From the IMG/VR virus record IMGVR_UViG_3300028283_000001: a stretch of 20,000 nucleotides of DNA. One strand, given 5' to 3'. The notes under the pieces are model-generated. The model saw nothing but the letters and a program-made list of their open reading frames with translations. It was not told the DNA's origin and ran no database searches. Positions 7,656 to 15,470 of the stretch are shown in pieces (position 1 is the stretch's first letter; the number at the start of each line of letters is the position of its first letter). The position numbers and the translations under genes were made by a program. The DNA comes from an uncultured virus (IMG/VR IMGVR_UViG_3300028283_000001) (lineage: Duplodnaviria; Heunggongvirae; Uroviricota; Caudoviricetes).

Positions 7656-10160
7656 ATGCTAAAAAATACATTGACTCCACAATTCACTCGTAAATCACGG
7701 GTTCAAAATGCTTCTTTCGCCTCTTCTATTAATGGGGCATTAGGAGAGGGGGATAGAGGCGCTTTTCAACGAGTCCCTGCTATTACTGGAAACCCATACG
7801 AATTTCAGAACTATCTTGACCGCTGGCGGCAGTATTGCCATCTGTATGAAATCTGTTGGGAAGCCCGTAAAATAGTCCGTATCCCTGTGGAGGACGCATT
7901 ACGAAAAGACTGGGAAATAGAGAATATTCCAGAGGGGATTACCAAAATACTTCGTAAGGAAGAAAAGAAGTTTAAGTTCCGTGATTCCCTTGCCCGTGCA
8001 TGGATGCTGGAGCGGTTATTGGGAGGGTGTATACAGTTTTTTGGCCTGGAGCAGAATACAGATGATGTTTCTAAGCTGTACCAACCATTACTGGGAATGT
8101 CAAAGCTGCGGTTTATCAATGTTATCCCTGTCAGCAGAATCTCCCGTGTAAATTGGGAGACTGACCCCCTGAAGATAGGCTATATGCGGCCTAACGAGTT
8201 CATAATTAATGGGCATAATATGCATATCAGCCGGTGTATTCTGTGGGATGGAGAACCGCTGTTCGACCCATATGATTTCGCTCTTACTCAGTTCAGGGCG
8301 AACCTGGCGGGATTTGGGCCCAGTAAACTTGCTCCTATATGGGATGATATCGTAAAGGCTGTAGGTACCAGGCAGGCTGCATATCAACTTATCCAAACCA
8401 ATAATGCTCTGATAATGGCCGTCAGCCAGTTGCAGGATCTTGTGGGGACCAACCCCGGAAAGGCAAAGCTGGCAGAACTAAAAGAGATCACCAAACATTT
8501 ATCCCTTTATCGAGCGGCCATTATAGATAAGGAAAAAGTTACGATTAGTCAGCAGTCCGCAGCCTTTGGCAGTGTTCCGGAATTGCTGATGACATTCTTA
8601 CAAGTCTTATCGGCCGCTTCCGACATACCGGCCACCCGGTTTCTGGGGCAGGCCCCCGGTGGGCTGAACGCCACAGGAGAAAGTGATTTGGAGAATTACT
8701 ATAATGTGGTGGATGCCATGCAGCGGCAGAAACTGGAACCTGCCATTCGACAATTTTATGATATCCTCGGGTATCATAAGTGGCCAGACAGCTGGGGGAG
8801 AATCCGGGAAGACCTGGAGATCAAGTTTCCACCCCTTTGGAATATCAATGAGCTGGAAGAAGCACAAAAGAATCAAATCGAGATTGCCAATGTTATGCAG
8901 TGTTGGGAAGCGGGGGTTTTGCCTGATGAAAAGTTGGTTGAGGAGCTTAATCTGAAACAGGTTTTTTCCTGTGACTTGGACGAGAAAGATATTGACCTGA
9001 TGAAGTCCATGCAGGATGATTCTGGTTTTTATGGGGCTGATCAGGGGGTTGATTCTTCTGAGGAGAGACGCAGGCAGACTGCTGCGACGCGTTCGGCTGG
9101 GGGTCAAGGGGGTTATAAGGGTGAAGGTGAGGGGGAGAAACCTGCGACCGCTGAGGGGCCACCCCTTAAAAAACCACCTTTGTCTAAAATTGGGAACAAA
9201 GCCGAATTTAAAGAAGAAGAACACCCACGGGCTGATGATGGTAAGTTTGGTTCTGGGGCGGGTGAAGCTTCTGTGACAGATAAAAAACCAAAGCCTGCTA
9301 AAATGTCTGACGAAGAAAAGAATCAACAGAAGGAAGAACAATTTCAAGAGTTGTTGGCGACTAAAAACCCGCATGATCAAGAAGCCTTTAAAAAGGCACA
9401 AACATTAGGGATAAATGTTCAGCCCGCTTGGACAGATGTGTGGGTAAACGATGATCCTAACGCTGATATTTTAGCTTTGGGCCGCGATAAGAAAGGAAAA
9501 TTGCAATATACCAGGAGTGCAGCAGCCTCCAAACGGGCTGAAATTAAAAAGTATAACCGCTTACGAGATTTTAGTAATGATTATGCGGGAATTATGAATG
9601 CTGTTGATAAAGATTTTTATCGGTCTGTTGAATCTCAAGTTCTTTATTTGATTAGCAAAACGGGTTTCCGCGTGGGCGGGGAAGAAGGTTCCACGGCGGC
9701 TGAAGAGCAAGCATATGGGGCATCTACACTGACTTCTGATATGGTGAAGATAGACGGTGATGTTATTCAGTTTACCTTTACGGGTAAGCATGGGGTAAAA
9801 CAAAATCATTTGTTGACAGACCCTAAAATGGCCAATTTGCTTCGTCATAAACAGGGACAACTTTTTAACACTAATGATGCAAAAGTTTTAAAGTATATGA
9901 AAAAAACAAGCGGTAAGGATTACTTGACGAAAGATTTAAGAACTTATGTTGGGACAAAGACCGCCCTGGTTGCAATAGAAAAGATGGACACCCCCGTGGG
10001 GGAAAAGGCAATTAAGAAGGCCATGATGGAAGTGGCTAAAATTGTGAGCGCTAAATTAGGCAATGCCCCTAAAATGGCGCTTGATAGTTATATTGATCCA
10101 ATGGTATTTGATCGGTGGAAGGGGTTAGCTGATGCTACAAAGCAACAACAAAAAGGATGA
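7656..10160 (+). CDS. Portal protein (DUF1073-type) fused to a C-terminal DNA topoisomerase IB domain
   Basis: aa 1-~450: W.ARKIV.IPVEDALR, SAASDIPATRFLGQAPGGLNATGESDLENYY, F.PLW. aa ~575-825: PAWTDVW, GRD.KG..QY, TGFRVG, F.GKHG, KDLRT, LGN.P...SYIDP. Single uninterrupted frame. Confidence 0.93.
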   Translation: MLKNTLTPQFTRKSRVQNASFASSINGALGEGDRGAFQRVPAITGNPYEFQNYLDRWRQYCHLYEICWEARKIVRIPVEDALRKDWEIENIPEGITKILRKEEKKFKFRDSLARAWMLERLLGGCIQFFGLEQNTDDVSKLYQPLLGMSKLRFINVIPVSRISRVNWETDPLKIGYMRPNEFIINGHNMHISRCILWDGEPLFDPYDFALTQFRANLAGFGPSKLAPIWDDIVKAVGTRQAAYQLIQTNNALIMAVSQLQDLVGTNPGKAKLAELKEITKHLSLYRAAIIDKEKVTISQQSAAFGSVPELLMTFLQVLSAASDIPATRFLGQAPGGLNATGESDLENYYNVVDAMQRQKLEPAIRQFYDILGYHKWPDSWGRIREDLEIKFPPLWNINELEEAQKNQIEIANVMQCWEAGVLPDEKLVEELNLKQVFSCDLDEKDIDLMKSMQDDSGFYGADQGVDSSEERRRQTAATRSAGGQGGYKGEGEGEKPATAEGPPLKKPPLSKIGNKAEFKEEEHPRADDGKFGSGAGEASVTDKKPKPAKMSDEEKNQQKEEQFQELLATKNPHDQEAFKKAQTLGINVQPAWTDVWVNDDPNADILALGRDKKGKLQYTRSAAASKRAEIKKYNRLRDFSNDYAGIMNAVDKDFYRSVESQVLYLISKTGFRVGGEEGSTAAEEQAYGASTLTSDMVKIDGDVIQFTFTGKHGVKQNHLLTDPKMANLLRHKQGQLFNTNDAKVLKYMKKTSGKDYLTKDLRTYVGTKTALVAIEKMDTPVGEKAIKKAMMEVAKIVSAKLGNAPKMALDSYIDPMVFDRWKGLADATKQQQKG

Positions 10161-10161
10161 A

Positions 10162-10470
10162 ATGCCAGTAACGGATGGGGACGTGTTAATGCAAGATTAT
10201 GTGCATTCGATGATCTTTCAAAACGCTGATGGCACTATATTTGATGAATCTGCAGATGGAACGGAAGCGTCGTCCCCTCAGGTTGTTATTCACAACATGG
10301 TTTCTGCCCCCGTTATTTATAACCCAGAACAGGTTATGGCAGGAATGAAGGTAGAGTTTGAGCATAACGATTTAACACAAGGGGATCCGGTTAAGATTGC
10401 AGAAATTGTTAAGGCCCATCTGGATGAGGATCCTGAATACTACACCAAACTTGAAAAGGCGGGGTTATGA
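10162..10470 (+). CDS. DUF5661-like phage head-associated protein
   Basis: GMKVEFEH...IVKAHLDEDPEYYTKL motif. Start at ATG 10162 after AAGGA (10132 is an alternative). Confidence 0.75.
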   Translation: MPVTDGDVLMQDYVHSMIFQNADGTIFDESADGTEASSPQVVIHNMVSAPVIYNPEQVMAGMKVEFEHNDLTQGDPVKIAEIVKAHLDEDPEYYTKLEKAGL

Positions 10471-10724
10471 ATTCTTTTGAAAACGGTAGGCAAAAAGCAT
10501 TGAATGCATTCAAAAAGAAAGAAGCTGAGCAGGGTTTAATTTTTGGGCGTACGTGGGAAGAGGTTCAATCAATGCAGCAAAAAACATATATTCCCAAAAC
10601 GGTTGATGTTTCCCCTGTTGGGGATTATGGTGCAGACCCATTGGGAAATGGTAAATTTAAAATGGTTCCATCTGGGGATATTGTTGACTTGGCAGAAATG
10701 AAGCGAAGGCGGGGTTATAAATAA
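10467..10724 (+). CDS. Hypothetical protein in the head module
   Basis: ATGA coupling. Its FENGRQKAL resembles FQNGRTRAL in ORF 11657. Confidence 0.7.
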   Translation: MNSFENGRQKALNAFKKKEAEQGLIFGRTWEEVQSMQQKTYIPKTVDVSPVGDYGADPLGNGKFKMVPSGDIVDLAEMKRRRGYK

Positions 10725-10725
10725 A

Positions 10726-11640
10726 ATGCCGCTTATCCTTGACATACGGCAGGCAAAAGCGCTGAAGCGGAAAAAACGGGTGAAGAAACTTCGACCTGTG
10801 AAATCCCCGGCTATGGCGCAGAAGCTGTTGCAGCAGCAAACAGAACGTCTATGGGAACAGATTATTTTCCCTTCCCTGGAGCGGATTAAACAGGCCGTGA
10901 CCAATGGGGTAGATCTTGAGCAGCTTTCCCAGCTGTTGCAGCAGGAAATGGAGCAAGCCGCGTGGATGTATGGAATGGAAACCGAACAAATTGTAGATAT
11001 GTGGAGGTTGACGGTAGATAAGTTAACCAAAATCAAGTTGAATGCTGTGCTTAACAGGTCTTTGGGTATTGATTTGACTGCGGTGCTGGATGACCCCTCT
11101 GTAGCAGAAGCCTTGGCGGTGGGAGCGTTTCAGGCGGAGGAGCTTATCAAAACCATGCCGACAAAAGTCATGGGGCAGGTTGCGCAGGCGGTAATGGCCA
11201 ATATGCGGGGGATCCCGCTACCGGAGGGGCGCAGCCTTCTTCAGCAGATAGAGTTTCTGGGCACCCGGAGTAAAAAATGGGCCCATGTTATTGCTCGTGA
11301 TCAAACTGCGAAACTCAACGCCACGCTGAATCAAACCCGGCAACAGGCGCTGGGCATTGACACTTATATTTGGCGTACGATGGAGGATTTACGGGTAGTG
11401 GGCAATCCTGCAGGGCAGTATCCTGGGTGGAATGATAAGCATATGGACCATTATGTAATGGACGGGTTATATTGCCGGTGGGATGATCCCACTGTATTCA
11501 GCACGGATGAAGGGAAGAGCTGGAGAAAGCGCACCGGAAAGATGCCAAAGAATCACCCAGCGGATGACATTCTTTGCCGCTGTTATACGGAAGCTGTGAT
11601 GGACTTGGATAAAATACTGGCGCATGCCACTGTACAGTGA
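10726..11640 (+). CDS. Minor head/morphogenesis protein (Mu gpF / SPP1 gp7 family)
   Basis: IARDQTAKLN...Q..LGI..YIWRT..D.RV...H...DG...WDDP...HP.....CRC motifs. Confidence 0.93.
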   Translation: MPLILDIRQAKALKRKKRVKKLRPVKSPAMAQKLLQQQTERLWEQIIFPSLERIKQAVTNGVDLEQLSQLLQQEMEQAAWMYGMETEQIVDMWRLTVDKLTKIKLNAVLNRSLGIDLTAVLDDPSVAEALAVGAFQAEELIKTMPTKVMGQVAQAVMANMRGIPLPEGRSLLQQIEFLGTRSKKWAHVIARDQTAKLNATLNQTRQQALGIDTYIWRTMEDLRVVGNPAGQYPGWNDKHMDHYVMDGLYCRWDDPTVFSTDEGKSWRKRTGKMPKNHPADDILCRCYTEAVMDLDKILAHATVQ

Positions 11641-11656
11641 GGGGGGTAGATAAAAA

Positions 11657-12538
11657 ATGAGTTATAATGTTATGATTTCAGATAAATCTAAACCGAATAC
11701 CGCACCGACAATGAAATTTGCTAAAGATGAAGCGGAGGCAAAAGCAATCGTTTCTCATGCAAAAGGGATGGGGTTAGAAGCTATTATGAAATTGGTAAGT
11801 AAAGATTATGATGAAAAAGCATTTATTGCTTCCAGAAAAAAATCAGAAAAACATAATAAGAAAATTAATAATGTTTTCCAAAACGCAATTATTGATTATG
11901 GTGGGGGTTACCGAGTTGCTTCAACGCCTGTTGGCTGGATTGTTTTTTATTCTGGGATTAAGGTTGGGCATGGAAATAATGAAGAGGAAGCGAAACAGGT
12001 TATTAGAGATGATAGCAAGAAAAGGTTTTTTGGTCATCCACATGAGCCTGTTGCAAATTGTGCTTTCCAAAATGGTCGCACCCGCGCACTCGATCATATT
12101 ACAAACAAGGCAGGGTTGGTTGGTGTGAAGCTGGAGAATGCGGGTGATGCGTATGAAGAAGGTGAGAATGCTGCACAGAATAATGTTTCACGAAATGCAA
12201 ATAAATACCCCAAAGGATCAGGGCAATGGAAACAATGGGATTCTGGATGGAGTAACGCAACAGGAAACAGGTTGAAAAAGAAAGTAGCAAACATGGCAAG
12301 TAAGATTGGGGTACGGGTGGAGAATGCGGCAGTGTTGTATAAAACAGAATCAAAAAGCAAAAAATTTATCATTACGGTTACGAATGATAAAGAAGGTATT
12401 ATTGAAGTAGTTAGCACAAGGGCAGATGGGTTTTATCCAACAGTAGAAGATCGAAGTAAATATACGGATGATAAGTCGAGACAACAGGTGATTACTATGG
12501 CTAAATCCTTTGCGGATAGTTTTGCAAGAAATAATTAA
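11657..12538 (+). CDS. Modular hypothetical head-module protein including an Rmf-like segment
   Basis: Lies between MuF and the protease. Repeated FQN/ENA linkers and an AYEEG...N.Y...W..GW segment. Confidence 0.75.
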   Translation: MSYNVMISDKSKPNTAPTMKFAKDEAEAKAIVSHAKGMGLEAIMKLVSKDYDEKAFIASRKKSEKHNKKINNVFQNAIIDYGGGYRVASTPVGWIVFYSGIKVGHGNNEEEAKQVIRDDSKKRFFGHPHEPVANCAFQNGRTRALDHITNKAGLVGVKLENAGDAYEEGENAAQNNVSRNANKYPKGSGQWKQWDSGWSNATGNRLKKKVANMASKIGVRVENAAVLYKTESKSKKFIITVTNDKEGIIEVVSTRADGFYPTVEDRSKYTDDKSRQQVITMAKSFADSFARNN

Positions 12539-12548
12539 GGCTAAAATC

Positions 12549-13760
12549 ATGAAAATTACAAACCAGTTTACGCCAATCGCTCCCGAGTCTCCGAAGTGGG
12601 AAAAGACTGAGGACGGCTTTCTCCGCTGCAAGGCAAGGGTATTGATGGAGACCATAATGCCTTATGGTAGAAACGAGCTTGAAGGGCTGCCAGAGGGCTT
12701 TAAAAATTCAACCGTAAATATGTACGTACCCCTTGATGAAATAGTCGCCAGTGACGCCCTGCGGTCTCTGGAGGGGATGCCTATAGTGGCTGGGGACCAT
12801 ACTTGGATGACTCCGGAACTGATATCCGATTATTCAATGGGCAATGTTTCTGGCACTCCGGTGGTAGAAGGGGGTAGTTTGATTTGTAACATTCTGGTGA
12901 CGAATCCTGAAGCCATCGCCGCTATAGAGAATGGAAAGATCGGAGAGATTTCTGCAGCCTACCGAGCAGAGACAGAATTTGTCAATGGCACGTGGAATGA
13001 ACAAACCTATGACGCAGTGCAACGGGGCTTGCGTTTCAATCATATTGCTGTGATTCCGAAAGGACACGGCCGAGGCGGAAGTGAAGTACGAATCTTAAAC
13101 AAAAAACAGGAGGACGTGAATACCATGAGTGATGAAAAGAAAAAAGTCAGAGTGAAACTCCGGAACACCGGGAAGTATGTCAATGTGGATGAGGATGTGG
13201 CTCCGGACATCGAAGCTGAGGCCGATGCGGGGGAAGCCAAAACGGCGGGTATGGATGATAAGATCAGTACCCTGGAAGGGAAGAACGCTGATCTTGAAGC
13301 TCTCCAGGCAGAGATTGAGGAACTGAAAGGGGAGCTGTCCGTGTACAAAGAGAAACTGGATCAGCTGCTCTCAGAGGAATCTGTTGAAGCTGCGGCTGAA
13401 GGCATGGTGGCAGAAACGGGCGAGGCGGAAGATATTGTGGAAAATGCCATTCCTGAGCCTGAAGAGGAAGACAAGAAAAAGGAAGCCACCGAGTTCAAAA
13501 ACGCCCTGCGCAAACTTCACGGCACCAAACTCCACAATGCTGTTCTTACGGCCATCGGAGTGAAAACGGAAGGGATGTCACCGGAAGCCATGCGGGGCGC
13601 TTTTAAGGCTCAGCACCAGATCTGCAACGCCATGAAGGGCAAAGTGGCGGCAAAGGTGGTTTCTGGGACCAAAATGATTCAGAATGCCGGCATGCCTGGT
13701 GATCAGGTTCCCGCGCAGCGGACCAATTTGGAGCGGCTGGGTTTTCGAGCAGTGAAGTAA
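12549..13760 (+). CDS. DUF2213-type prohead protease with C-terminal scaffold
   Basis: T.DGFL, SLEGMPI...H, EISAAY and NHIAVI..G.GRGG..VRI motifs, then an acidic coiled coil. Start moved to ATG 12549. Confidence 0.88.
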   Translation: MKITNQFTPIAPESPKWEKTEDGFLRCKARVLMETIMPYGRNELEGLPEGFKNSTVNMYVPLDEIVASDALRSLEGMPIVAGDHTWMTPELISDYSMGNVSGTPVVEGGSLICNILVTNPEAIAAIENGKIGEISAAYRAETEFVNGTWNEQTYDAVQRGLRFNHIAVIPKGHGRGGSEVRILNKKQEDVNTMSDEKKKVRVKLRNTGKYVNVDEDVAPDIEAEADAGEAKTAGMDDKISTLEGKNADLEALQAEIEELKGELSVYKEKLDQLLSEESVEAAAEGMVAETGEAEDIVENAIPEPEEEDKKKEATEFKNALRKLHGTKLHNAVLTAIGVKTEGMSPEAMRGAFKAQHQICNAMKGKVAAKVVSGTKMIQNAGMPGDQVPAQRTNLERLGFRAVK

Positions 13761-13815
13761 AAGATCGTAACAACGCTGTTTTTGATAATAAAAAATACAC
13801 AGGAGGACTTAAACA

Positions 13816-14442
13816 ATGAGTTTTGCAAGTGGATATAGAGGAAATGTACTTGGGTCGGTGCAGACCACCTATTCGGATCAGCCCGGTGTAGCGCTGCCGG
13901 GGATGCTGGCTTTTGCCAGTGATGATAATTTTATGGATGCCATGTTCATCGGGGAAACTCTTGGCATTGAAGCGGGCAAGGGAATCCAGGCCATTATTGC
14001 AGATGAGGGGTTGGGTTTCAATCGTCCGGGGCTTGCAGCCTATCTGCCCAACGGTGGGGAATCCGCCGCAGAGATGTACGGCATCGTTGTATTTGATCAG
14101 GCCATGCAGTCACAGGAAGACTCCGATGGCAATCCTATCAATGGATGGGCAAAGGGCCGAGTGGCTCGGGTGCTTCGACCTGGTCGTGCCGGCGGGCGTA
14201 TTTATGTGAAGGCCAAAGACGATATCGTACCCGGTACTTCCACAGTGAACTGGGTCACCACCGCAGGGTCGGATGGCATTTACGAGGCGGGTGAGTTTGC
14301 TCCTGGCGTGCTGAACAGTGGCACTGTGGGGACCACCGTGGCCATCACCAATGCGAAGTGGGTTTCCGCAGCAGCCGCAGGCGAAGTGGCTATTCTGGAA
14401 CTCTTTGGCAATGTTGTGCCGACCTTTGACGCTTCCATTTAG
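13816..14442 (+). CDS. Capsid decoration/cement protein
   Basis: Position between protease and major capsid. Gly/Ala-rich beta protein with V...GRIYV. CAGGAGG RBS. Confidence 0.7.
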   Translation: MSFASGYRGNVLGSVQTTYSDQPGVALPGMLAFASDDNFMDAMFIGETLGIEAGKGIQAIIADEGLGFNRPGLAAYLPNGGESAAEMYGIVVFDQAMQSQEDSDGNPINGWAKGRVARVLRPGRAGGRIYVKAKDDIVPGTSTVNWVTTAGSDGIYEAGEFAPGVLNSGTVGTTVAITNAKWVSAAAAGEVAILELFGNVVPTFDASI

Positions 14443-14498
14443 TTTTGTGGTGGGCAGAAGATAAAAATAAAAAAATAACTACAGGAGGATTTTATACC

Positions 14499-15470
14499 AT
14501 GGCTTATGATTTTACTACCAAAAACGATGGGGCCATAAAAGCATCGGAACTCGTCGTTAGTATTTTCGATCAGGTGGACAGTGCATTCTACGATGTTCTG
14601 TACCCTGACATCCTGTGGAGAGATAATATTCCGCAGGGATCCATTAAATCCGATATCAACCCAGGGGCCATGAATCATGTTTACCGCTCCAGGGACGTCA
14701 AGGGAATGGGGCAGTTCATCAATGGTGATGTAAAGAACATTCCGCGTGTTGGACAGTCCATTGGGCAAATCACTGTACCGATTTTGGATGCGGCCGTAGG
14801 ATGCACCATTACCGATATGGAGGCAGAGCGGTACCAGTACGGGTACAATTCCAGCCTGGCGCAGGACATCGGGGAAGTGATGCGTAGAGCCACTGATCTG
14901 CATGTGGAGCGTTGCTATTTCTTTGGTGATGCCATGGCCGGGTTTCTTTCTTATCTGGATTACCCGACCGTCACAAAAATCCCGGCAGACGCTTGGACCG
15001 GGGCAGACCCGCAAGCATGGGTCAATAGCATCAATGACGCTATTACCGCAGTGTGGGTTGCGTCAAAGAACGTGCACTTGCCCGATACCGTGAAGATGCC
15101 TCCGTCCCTGTTCAGCATGCTGTCACAGGCGTACGTTATTGGCACCTCTACTACGGGGCTGGCAGTGCCGGCGTTTGACTTTCTGCAGAAGTCTAATATC
15201 TGCACCATGGTCACCGGTAAACCGCTGAAGATCGTCCCCCTGCGTTATCTGGAAGGGGCCGGAGTAGGCGGGGCAGACCGTATCATCATCCAGGAAGATA
15301 TGGATCGGAACTTTGTGATGCCATTTCCCCTGCCGTATCAGTTGGCGCAGCCCGTGCCGGTGGCATTCGGAGTTGACACCTTTGCTCGGTATAAGTTTGG
15401 CAGCTTCAACATTCGTTACCCTGGCAGTATGGCGTATCTTGATGTTGCGCAGGCCGACTCGTCTTCCTAA
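14499..15470 (+). CDS. Major capsid protein (DUF2184-type, HK97 fold)
   Basis: 323 aa. D...YDV.YP, G.G.FI....IP.V, FGD...G.L.YP, PDT..MPP and G...RYP....Y.D motifs. CAGGAGG RBS before ATG 14499. Confidence 0.9.
   Translation: MAYDFTTKNDGAIKASELVVSIFDQVDSAFYDVLYPDILWRDNIPQGSIKSDINPGAMNHVYRSRDVKGMGQFINGDVKNIPRVGQSIGQITVPILDAAVGCTITDMEAERYQYGYNSSLAQDIGEVMRRATDLHVERCYFFGDAMAGFLSYLDYPTVTKIPADAWTGADPQAWVNSINDAITAVWVASKNVHLPDTVKMPPSLFSMLSQAYVIGTSTTGLAVPAFDFLQKSNICTMVTGKPLKIVPLRYLEGAGVGGADRIIIQEDMDRNFVMPFPLPYQLAQPVPVAFGVDTFARYKFGSFNIRYPGSMAYLDVAQADSSS

Follow-up and report, generated by a model that had tools for sequence, protein, structure and literature searches.

The window analyzed here is a 20,000-nucleotide stretch of an uncultured virus of the Caudoviricetes (IMG/VR record IMGVR_UViG_3300028283_000001), and it forms the end of a 70,578-base phage genome that is a single contig. 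Assignments from Pfam and PHROGs gave a head gene order of TerS, TerL, portal joined to a type IB topoisomerase (TopIB), DUF5661, an 85-amino acid (aa) open reading frame (ORF), MuF, a 293-aa ORF, DUF2213 protease-scaffold, cement, and capsid. A sequence-only reading of the window had noticed hydrophobic-x-Asn (hxN) motifs across these head proteins and had proposed that the protease and its substrates switched together from Asp to Asn specificity. Comparison with relatives suggests that this DUF2213 protease probably does cut its head proteins after Asn. The features concerned are listed below, with a slash at predicted cuts and with confidence of the structure models given as the predicted local distance difference test (pLDDT). 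The starts of the protease gene (ATG 12549) and the capsid gene (ATG 14499) are the probable ones, taken from homolog starts.

7656..10160, + strand: portal (PF06381, residues 59-410), disordered linker and type IB topoisomerase, 834 aa (Pfam E 3e-62 and 3e-16)
7701..7712, + strand: portal leader site V-Q-N18/A, predicted cut (homolog alignment; pLDDT <50)
9189..9200, + strand: linker site I-G-N514/K ahead of the cargo half, predicted cut (IGNK also in relatives L004 and L084; inside a stretch of pLDDT <50, residues 473-517)
9207..9257, + strand: conserved tag F-K-E-E-E-H-P-R-x-x-D-G-K-F-G-S-G at the start of the cargo module (19/58 TopIB-fusion homologs)
9309..10157, + strand: type IB topoisomerase module with R672, K711, R762, N803, and Y812 (invariant in 28/28 aligned TopIB-bearing rows)
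10132..10470, + strand: DUF5661 ORF (Pfam) with sites FQN-A (10216) and IHN-M (10288); relatives fuse the same module to the portal behind hxN
10467..10724, + strand: 85-aa ORF starting F-E-N-G-R, a motif shared with small ORFs in head loci of the Asn clade
10726..11640, + strand: MuF head morphogenesis protein (Pfam); motif not enriched (shuffle test)
11657..12538, + strand: 293-aa modular ORF with nine hxN matches, including an FQNGR module (motif scan)
12137-12292, + strand: module resembling ribosome modulation factor (RMF) between LEN-A and VAN-M of the 293-aa ORF (weak resemblance)
12549..13100, + strand: DUF2213 protease domain (PF09979, E 4e-30) with H84, S135, H165, R175, L32, and V60, flanked by I-T-N5/Q and I-L-N184/K
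13101..13760, + strand: scaffold half with LRN-T (13158), VEN-A (13437), FKN-A (13494), and IQN-A (13677) conserved among homologs
13816..14442, + strand: cement/decoration protein of the E217 gp24/Pam3 gp6 family (family match); unsupported as a substrate, without enrichment
14499..15470, + strand: major capsid protein (PF09950; Pfam, relatives), leaderless; TKN-D at 14517 not conserved

The protease matched PF09979, a large family (5691 representatives at E<=0.001), with 105.5 bits against a cut-off of 22, over profile positions 2-166 of 167. It is fused to the scaffold and placed between the MuF and the cement/capsid genes, in an order like that of phage TLS. The structure model of residues 1-197 had a pLDDT of 85.6, falling below 50 at residues 1-10 and 176-197, where both flanking sites lie. 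The model was superposed on T4 gp21 over 131 residues (Z 10.6, root-mean-square deviation 2.7 Å) at 9% identity and on herpesvirus proteases with Z of 7.8 (varicella), 6.0, and 5.0, while Foldseek by itself gave an E of 0.005. From the profile match and the model, the gene at 12549-13760 is a DUF2213 protease-scaffold fusion with a predicted fold of the T4 gp21/herpesvirus type. Residues H84, S135, H165, and R175 were near-invariant across 176 representatives of <60% identity (in P0001 numbering, S144 and H174 in 176/176, R184 in 175/176, and H93 in 173/176), and by analogy they are the putative triad and oxyanion residues.

All 22 motifs cited by the sequence-only reading, together with the domain-closing stretch GHGRGGSEVRILN, were present where it had placed them. 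Enrichment was measured against within-protein shuffles (2000 shuffles), and the comparison set was the remainder of the 70.6-kb genome, 62 ORFs obtained by mechanical calling. The pattern [FILV]xN[AGKM], for which that reading had expected an excess in head proteins, occurred 27 times against 8.3 expected in the eight head ORFs (p<=0.0005), and 62 times against 47 expected (1.3-fold, p=0.02) in the comparison set. Following a hydrophobic residue and any other, Asn ranked first in enrichment among all 20 residues (1.74-fold; Gln 1.51-fold, Arg 1.42-fold, Asp 1.1-fold). The signal was carried by the protease-scaffold (8 vs. 1.5) and three accessory ORFs (10 vs. 2.2), with ORF 11657 alone at 6 vs. 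1.5. No significant excess was found in the whole portal (5 vs. 2.4, p=0.09), in MuF (1 vs. 0.6), in capsid (1 vs. 0.9), or in MuF, cement, and capsid pooled (4 vs. 2.3). TerL (0 vs. 0.5), lysozyme (1 vs. 0.4), and the TopIB domain (2 vs. 0.8), named beforehand as contrasts, likewise gave no enrichment. Because the pattern had been chosen post hoc, a second one drawn from homolog scaffolds, [FIV]xN[ASCMT], was also tested; it occurred 15 times against 5.0 expected in head ORFs, 10 against 4.2 with the protease excluded (p=0.012), and 39 against 33.5 elsewhere (p=0.21).

The homolog set comprised 366 protease hits, with eight lacking a parsable motif and the truncated P0238 left out. Asn closed the protease domain in 150 of the 176 nonredundant representatives and Asp in the other 26; this is not a family proportion because the sampling was centered on the query. 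The Asp ending that the sequence-only reading gave as usual for DUF2213 domains turned out to be real, and Asp-type homologs end the domain in x-D. The domain in this phage ends R-I-L-N and carries Y-V-P, and the x-D end and Y-R-P of the Asp-type proteins of TLS, Pa193, and DA10 were not found in it. At the locus level, 208 of 218 proteases were typed (10 untyped), yielding 96 nonredundant loci, 29 of Asn type and 67 of Asp type. Across these 96 loci, the scaffold motifs doubly dissociate by protease type. The motif hxN[ASG] occurred 85 times against 17.7 expected in the Asn-type loci and 17 against 16.3 in the Asp-type loci, whereas [RK]xD[ASG] occurred 9 times against 9.2 and 205 against 65, respectively. 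Scaffold hxN without the following residue was at 2.26-fold in the Asn type and 0.84-fold in the Asp type. Plain hxD was tried as the Asp-type motif and set aside, with [RK]xD[ASG] and hxD[ASG] both working on the 67 loci.

Around the Asn of 150 scaffolds, P4 preferred R/K, P3 preferred F/I/V, and P1′ preferred C/S/M/A/T. In the proposed cut motif, a small residue comes after [R/K]-[F/I/V]-x-Asn; other members of the family likely cut after Asp. Sites kept in 94 close homologs were ITN (71/82), ILN (94/94), LRN (83/94), VEN (90/93), FKN (92/93), and IQN (82/93). Two further sites listed earlier were poorly conserved on this comparison, LHN-A in 9/93 homologs and ICN-A in 43/93; LHN-A was rejected, as were the candidates IEN-G (17/94) and FVN-G (13/94). 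An Asp-type sister group demonstrated the swap site for site, the domain end being N in 15/15 vs. D in 7/7 and the VEN site N in 9/15 vs. D in 7/7. The portal leader carried Asn in 9/11 Asn-type representatives, and Asp one column earlier in 37/38 of the Asp type. Capsid leaders, compared by eye, ended in x-D/A in Asp-type loci and in hxN/A in several distant Asn-type loci (among them L036, L200, L203, and L210). The D/N covariation that had been proposed as a check was thus observed: the scaffold, the portal leader, the linker before the cargo, and, in distant relatives, the capsid leader all switch with the protease end. In both the protease and portal models, the predicted cut sites fell in low-confidence, likely disordered stretches; N18 and N514 of the portal were in stretches of pLDDT <50, and the remaining 12 hxN matches of that model were mostly in folded parts.

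The capsid of this phage behaved differently from what had been suggested. The TKN-D near its N-terminus, listed earlier as a looser site, was not conserved, and close relatives are leaderless and start M-x-Y-x-F. The leader being absent in this phage and its close relatives, capsid propeptide removal at the motif was not found here.

The TLS capsid N-terminus determined by Edman degradation is ASDMGIW (PMC11447400). In the annotated TLS capsid (L225, 5088-6062), this sequence starts at residue 28, directly after K-N-D, which gives a 27-residue leader, and the TLS protease domain ends L-N-L-D/S. Pa193 was considered as a second anchor and rejected; 93 residues of its portal lack density, but position 93 holds a residue other than Asp, and the nearest A-M-D/S lies about 20 residues earlier, so that Pa193 speaks neither for nor against the motif. 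Missing N-termini are described without sites in the available parts of PMC11456595 and PMC12724387, the latter with Sf11 capsid coverage beginning at residue 40.

The protease itself was expected to change along with its motif, and residues covarying with the D/N type were found at two positions. Position 60 (Y-R-P vs. Y-V-P) was Arg in 65/69 Asp-type proteins and hydrophobic in at least 71/72 of the main Asn clade, where Arg is replaced by Val or Ile. Position 32 was mostly small in the Asp type and Leu in 59/72 of the main Asn clade. As judged from these alignments, there is about an even chance that the S1 pocket is altered in shape by the missing Arg60 and the new Leu32. A tree was built from 40 domains after most of the motif columns had been trimmed, with L116 omitted for its long branch; it placed the Asn-type L003, L231, and L232 among the Asp-type P0109, Pa193, and L071. 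This tree requires two changes of type, a single change being found in 0/200 bootstrap trees; the Asp/Asn switch therefore probably arose twice, and any rooting implies at least one Asp-to-Asn change. The second Asn group (L003, L231, and L232, relatives of DA10 and Pa193) has Leu32, Ile60, and swapped sites in a scaffold that aligns with that of DA10.

The closest known systems are the DUF2213 protease-scaffolds of T1-like coliphages (TLS gp33) and of the Pbunavirus Pa193 (gp24, PDB 9B40), which share the Pfam family, the portal-MuF-protease/scaffold-cement-capsid order, and the places of the motif; unlike in these phages, the motif here ends in Asn, Arg60 is replaced by Val and the small residue 32 by Leu, and the capsid leader is lost. 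T4 gp21, SPN3US gp245, and phiKZ gp175 have in common with this phage a three-residue motif fixed at P3 and P1, and gp21 also the fold; here, P1 is Asn and not Glu, the protease is fused to the scaffold, and cargo is joined to the portal C-terminus. The motif is L/I-x-E for T4 gp21 (PMC9026906) and A-x-E for SPN3US gp245 (PMC10052503), with phiKZ gp175 also of the A-x-E type. Between them, these papers describe proteases that cut themselves, break up the scaffold, and take propeptides off the portal and off proteins that are ejected. As in the motif-directed maturation of T4, SPN3US, and phiKZ, one short motif stands at the protease end, in the scaffold, and at virion-protein leaders.

The best reading of these data is that the enzyme is an Asn-specific prohead protease, an Asn-type variant of motif-directed head maturation, which we regard as fairly likely from the comparisons above. 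Three other explanations were weighed, all of them weaker. The first, which is improbable, is that hxN serves for docking or capsid targeting, binding the protease/scaffold or the shell and mostly staying uncut. The motif does accompany longer conserved tags (FxNGR and HPRxxDGKF), there is no removable leader on this phage's capsid protein, and the T4 capsid targeting sequence unites targeting and cutting within ten residues (PMC9026906). Against this, the motif ends the protease domain itself (94/94) and dots the scaffold, its Asp counterpart coincides with the measured TLS N-terminus, and small residues are preferred at P1′.

A chemical route has a still smaller probability. The Asn would cyclize and break the chain by itself, or would deamidate to Asp and be cut by an Asp-specific protease. 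Small residues after Asn favor succinimide formation, and P1′ is rich in Ser, Ala, Cys, and Gly-like small residues; the exchange of Asn and Asp is also what deamidation produces. All catalytic residues are kept, however, positions 32 and 60 change along with the motif, the preference for a hydrophobic P3 and a basic P4 resembles recognition by an enzyme, and Lys, Gln, or Met occupies P1′ in a number of the conserved sites. Least probable of all is structural or inherited noise, in which Asn and Asp cap helices or turns and one clade drifted to Asn; LRN-T(G) aligning with a turn-like 'VVD-G' and missing from the sister group, the InPase IENP and TopIB LGN being structural matches, and background ORFs enriched 1.1- to 1.3-fold would fit it, but it was already weakened by the double dissociation in scaffolds, and the switch hits homologous places in different proteins, spares TerL and MuF, and is repeated in a second lineage, where the protease has changed in the same way.

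Several observations weigh against an Asn-specific protease. The covariation amounts to one or two evolutionary events, so that the sequence counts are not independent; a single Asn clade was not rejected by the approximately unbiased test (p=0.07), and three of seven Asp-type sister proteins have no Arg60, which is thus not required for the Asp motif. A profile alignment to T4 gp21 for placing residues 32 and 60 failed, with a probability of 0.2%. Plain hxD was barely enriched in the scaffolds of 26 Asp-type representatives (1.10-fold), and many hxN matches lie inside folded portal, TopIB, and InPase cores. A probable tail sheath gene of this phage (G000 C1, 9337-10857) had six [FILV]xN[AGKM] matches against 1.7 expected (p 0.008, about chance level over 70 tests). 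The TLS anchor is one protein only, and its authors surmise a 45-residue capsid leader (PMC11447400). Searches by tblastn with Asn-type queries for a cultured Asn-type phage gave hundreds of records, all of <60% identity, and none was found; the five named records that were read (TLS, DA10, Pa193, Vibrio D93, and a Helicobacter prophage) were all of Asp type. Across relatives, hxN enrichment was 1.4-fold in accessory ORFs and 1.3-fold in genes downstream of the capsid. The earlier interpretation is upheld in part. Its core, the joint switch of protease end and substrates from Asp to Asn, came through all the computational checks suggested with it, namely the enrichment, the D/N covariation, and the covarying residues; the capsid site and some of the listed sites did not hold, and enrichment in the accessory ORFs of relatives is modest.

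The model of the portal-TopIB protein (pLDDT 81) resembled the portals of Pam3, T1, and E217 and the TopIB of Deinococcus. The TopIB core scored 59.8 bits in Pfam against a cut-off of 23.7, and R672, K711, R762, N803, and Y812 fit the R-K-R-(H/N)-Y residue pattern of type IB topoisomerases; we take them to be the catalytic pentad. Deinococcus radiodurans TopIB (PDB 2F4Q/3M4A) matched the fold with an E of 5e-12 at 29% identity, with the five catalytic-type residues kept; unlike that enzyme, the phage TopIB forms part of a portal protein, in which a predicted cut site and then the conserved tag come before it. The 58 TopIB-fusion homologs included 15 of the same portal family, six MuF, nine other portals, and two DUF2213 proteins. 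In the latter (P0292 and P0306), TopIB is joined to the DUF2213 protease itself; further fusions involve MuF and two other portal families. The residue ahead of the HPRxxDGKF tag, compared by eye, was Asn in 5/5 homologs whose portal leader has Asn and Asp in 3/3 whose leader has Asp, the other 50 of the 58 having no tag or no readable leader.

The C-terminal extensions of Asn-clade portals were mosaics in which hxN links modules of the DUF5661, InPase, TopIB, and unassigned kinds, and in relatives the first three are bracketed by hxN. Over portal extensions of each type, hxN[ASG] occurred 23 times against 9.0 expected in the Asn type and 12 against 7.6 in the Asp type. In the close relatives L004 and L084, a DUF5661 module comes after IGN, and the TopIB of this phage thus appears to have been inserted at that joint. 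In another relative (L021, 1949-4474), residues about 575-660 of the portal extension contain an HPR tag followed by a module starting V-Y-H-G-S, without a Pfam match, which we presume to be ADP-ribosyltransferase-like. The Pa193 portal (L227, 11588-13885) ends in an InPase-like module, as in the Asn clade, which makes this cultured Asp-type phage suited to testing cargo release. Variable domains on portal or MuF, predicted to be packaged, are known from the phage polyvalent proteins (PMC5512222; Iyer et al., 2017), and the relatives here have InPase, DUF5661, and TopIB. The available part of that paper reports portal-InPase fusions as likely injected and names MPTase and assemblin-like peptidases as possible processors; it contains no cleavage motif and no portal-TopIB fusion.

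Inside the prohead, the protease is fairly likely to free itself, chop the scaffold, and trim the portal leader. A cut at N514, for which the chances are slightly better than even, would release the tag-led TopIB, with as many as 12 copies provided that all portal subunits retain it. Whether the small accessory ORFs would also be cut into modules is evenly balanced. Entry of released modules into the host along with the DNA would be a tentative further step. The capsid protein, having lost its leader, is predicted to be uncut. Cargo release is less sure than scaffold processing, and injection is the least sure. A joint reading takes DUF2213 as a reprogrammable address code, in which two residues (Arg60 to Val/Ile and small 32 to Leu) would make an Asp-cutter a serine protease strict for Asn, twice independently, with scaffold, portal, capsid leader, and swappable cargo re-addressed and with TopIB and RMF-like peptides cut free in the head and injected; as a whole, this is rather unlikely.

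A literature search for an Asn-cutting prohead protease, or for cleavage 'after asparagine' with phage capsid, found none, subscription papers being mostly outside the search. New here are a paired Asp/Asn test that spans the protease, its scaffold, the portal, and the linker before the cargo, as well as two candidate residues and a probable second origin. Mapped prohead protease rules end in Glu (T4, SPN3US, and phiKZ), and the DUF2213 rule has so far consisted of N-termini such as that of TLS, as far as the available parts of the sources go. The Asn branch and its candidate residues offer a direct swap experiment on how a viral protease changes specificity jointly with its substrate sites, of which there are dozens. 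The motif would also allow mature head proteins and the limits of cargo to be predicted across a widespread uncultured clade, and the enzyme may become a protein tool, as a small serine protease specific for Asn; a phage topoisomerase in the virion becomes a testable idea. An Asn-type protease with a short, different scaffold was observed in the cultured bacterium Desulfosarcina widdelii PP31 (L118, 10004-11011) and in a Desulfobacterales metagenome-assembled genome (L119), and the two are a possible host hint and bench source.

Among the accessory ORFs, the motif F/Y-[EQ]-N-G-[RKQC] was present in 10/29 Asn-type loci, one of them the window's own, and in 1/67 Asp-type loci. The longer form F-[EQ]-N-G-R-x-x-A, possibly a loading tag, was observed in small head-locus ORFs (window 10476-10490 and 12065-12079) and directly after the protease domain in L118/L119 and P0099. 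ORF 11657 had no full-length homolog of similar length and no Pfam or PHROG match as a whole. A module of about 50 residues resembling ribosome modulation factor (RMF, PF04957), below the Pfam cut-off, recurs between hxN sites (window 12137-12292; L092, 37-789; L024, 14506-14934), and once within a portal extension (L021 portal residues 715-756). The window module scored 13.8 bits (E 0.064) and that of L024 25.9 bits (E 1e-5) against a cut-off of 27.9, and its structural look-alikes in the Atlas had a template modeling (TM) score of 0.6, below the Atlas naming bar.

The genome was detected in lake-water metagenomes, where one contig, possibly from the source sample, covers the head module with zero differences. 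Two lake runs gave RNA-library contigs over parts of the module at low depth, which is not proof of transcription. A block of genes lies amid the neck genes (G000 C1, 3562-7712), and presumably encodes glycosyltransferase-like and sugar-modifying functions; its first gene is common to relatives (L005, 13610; L009, 13838).

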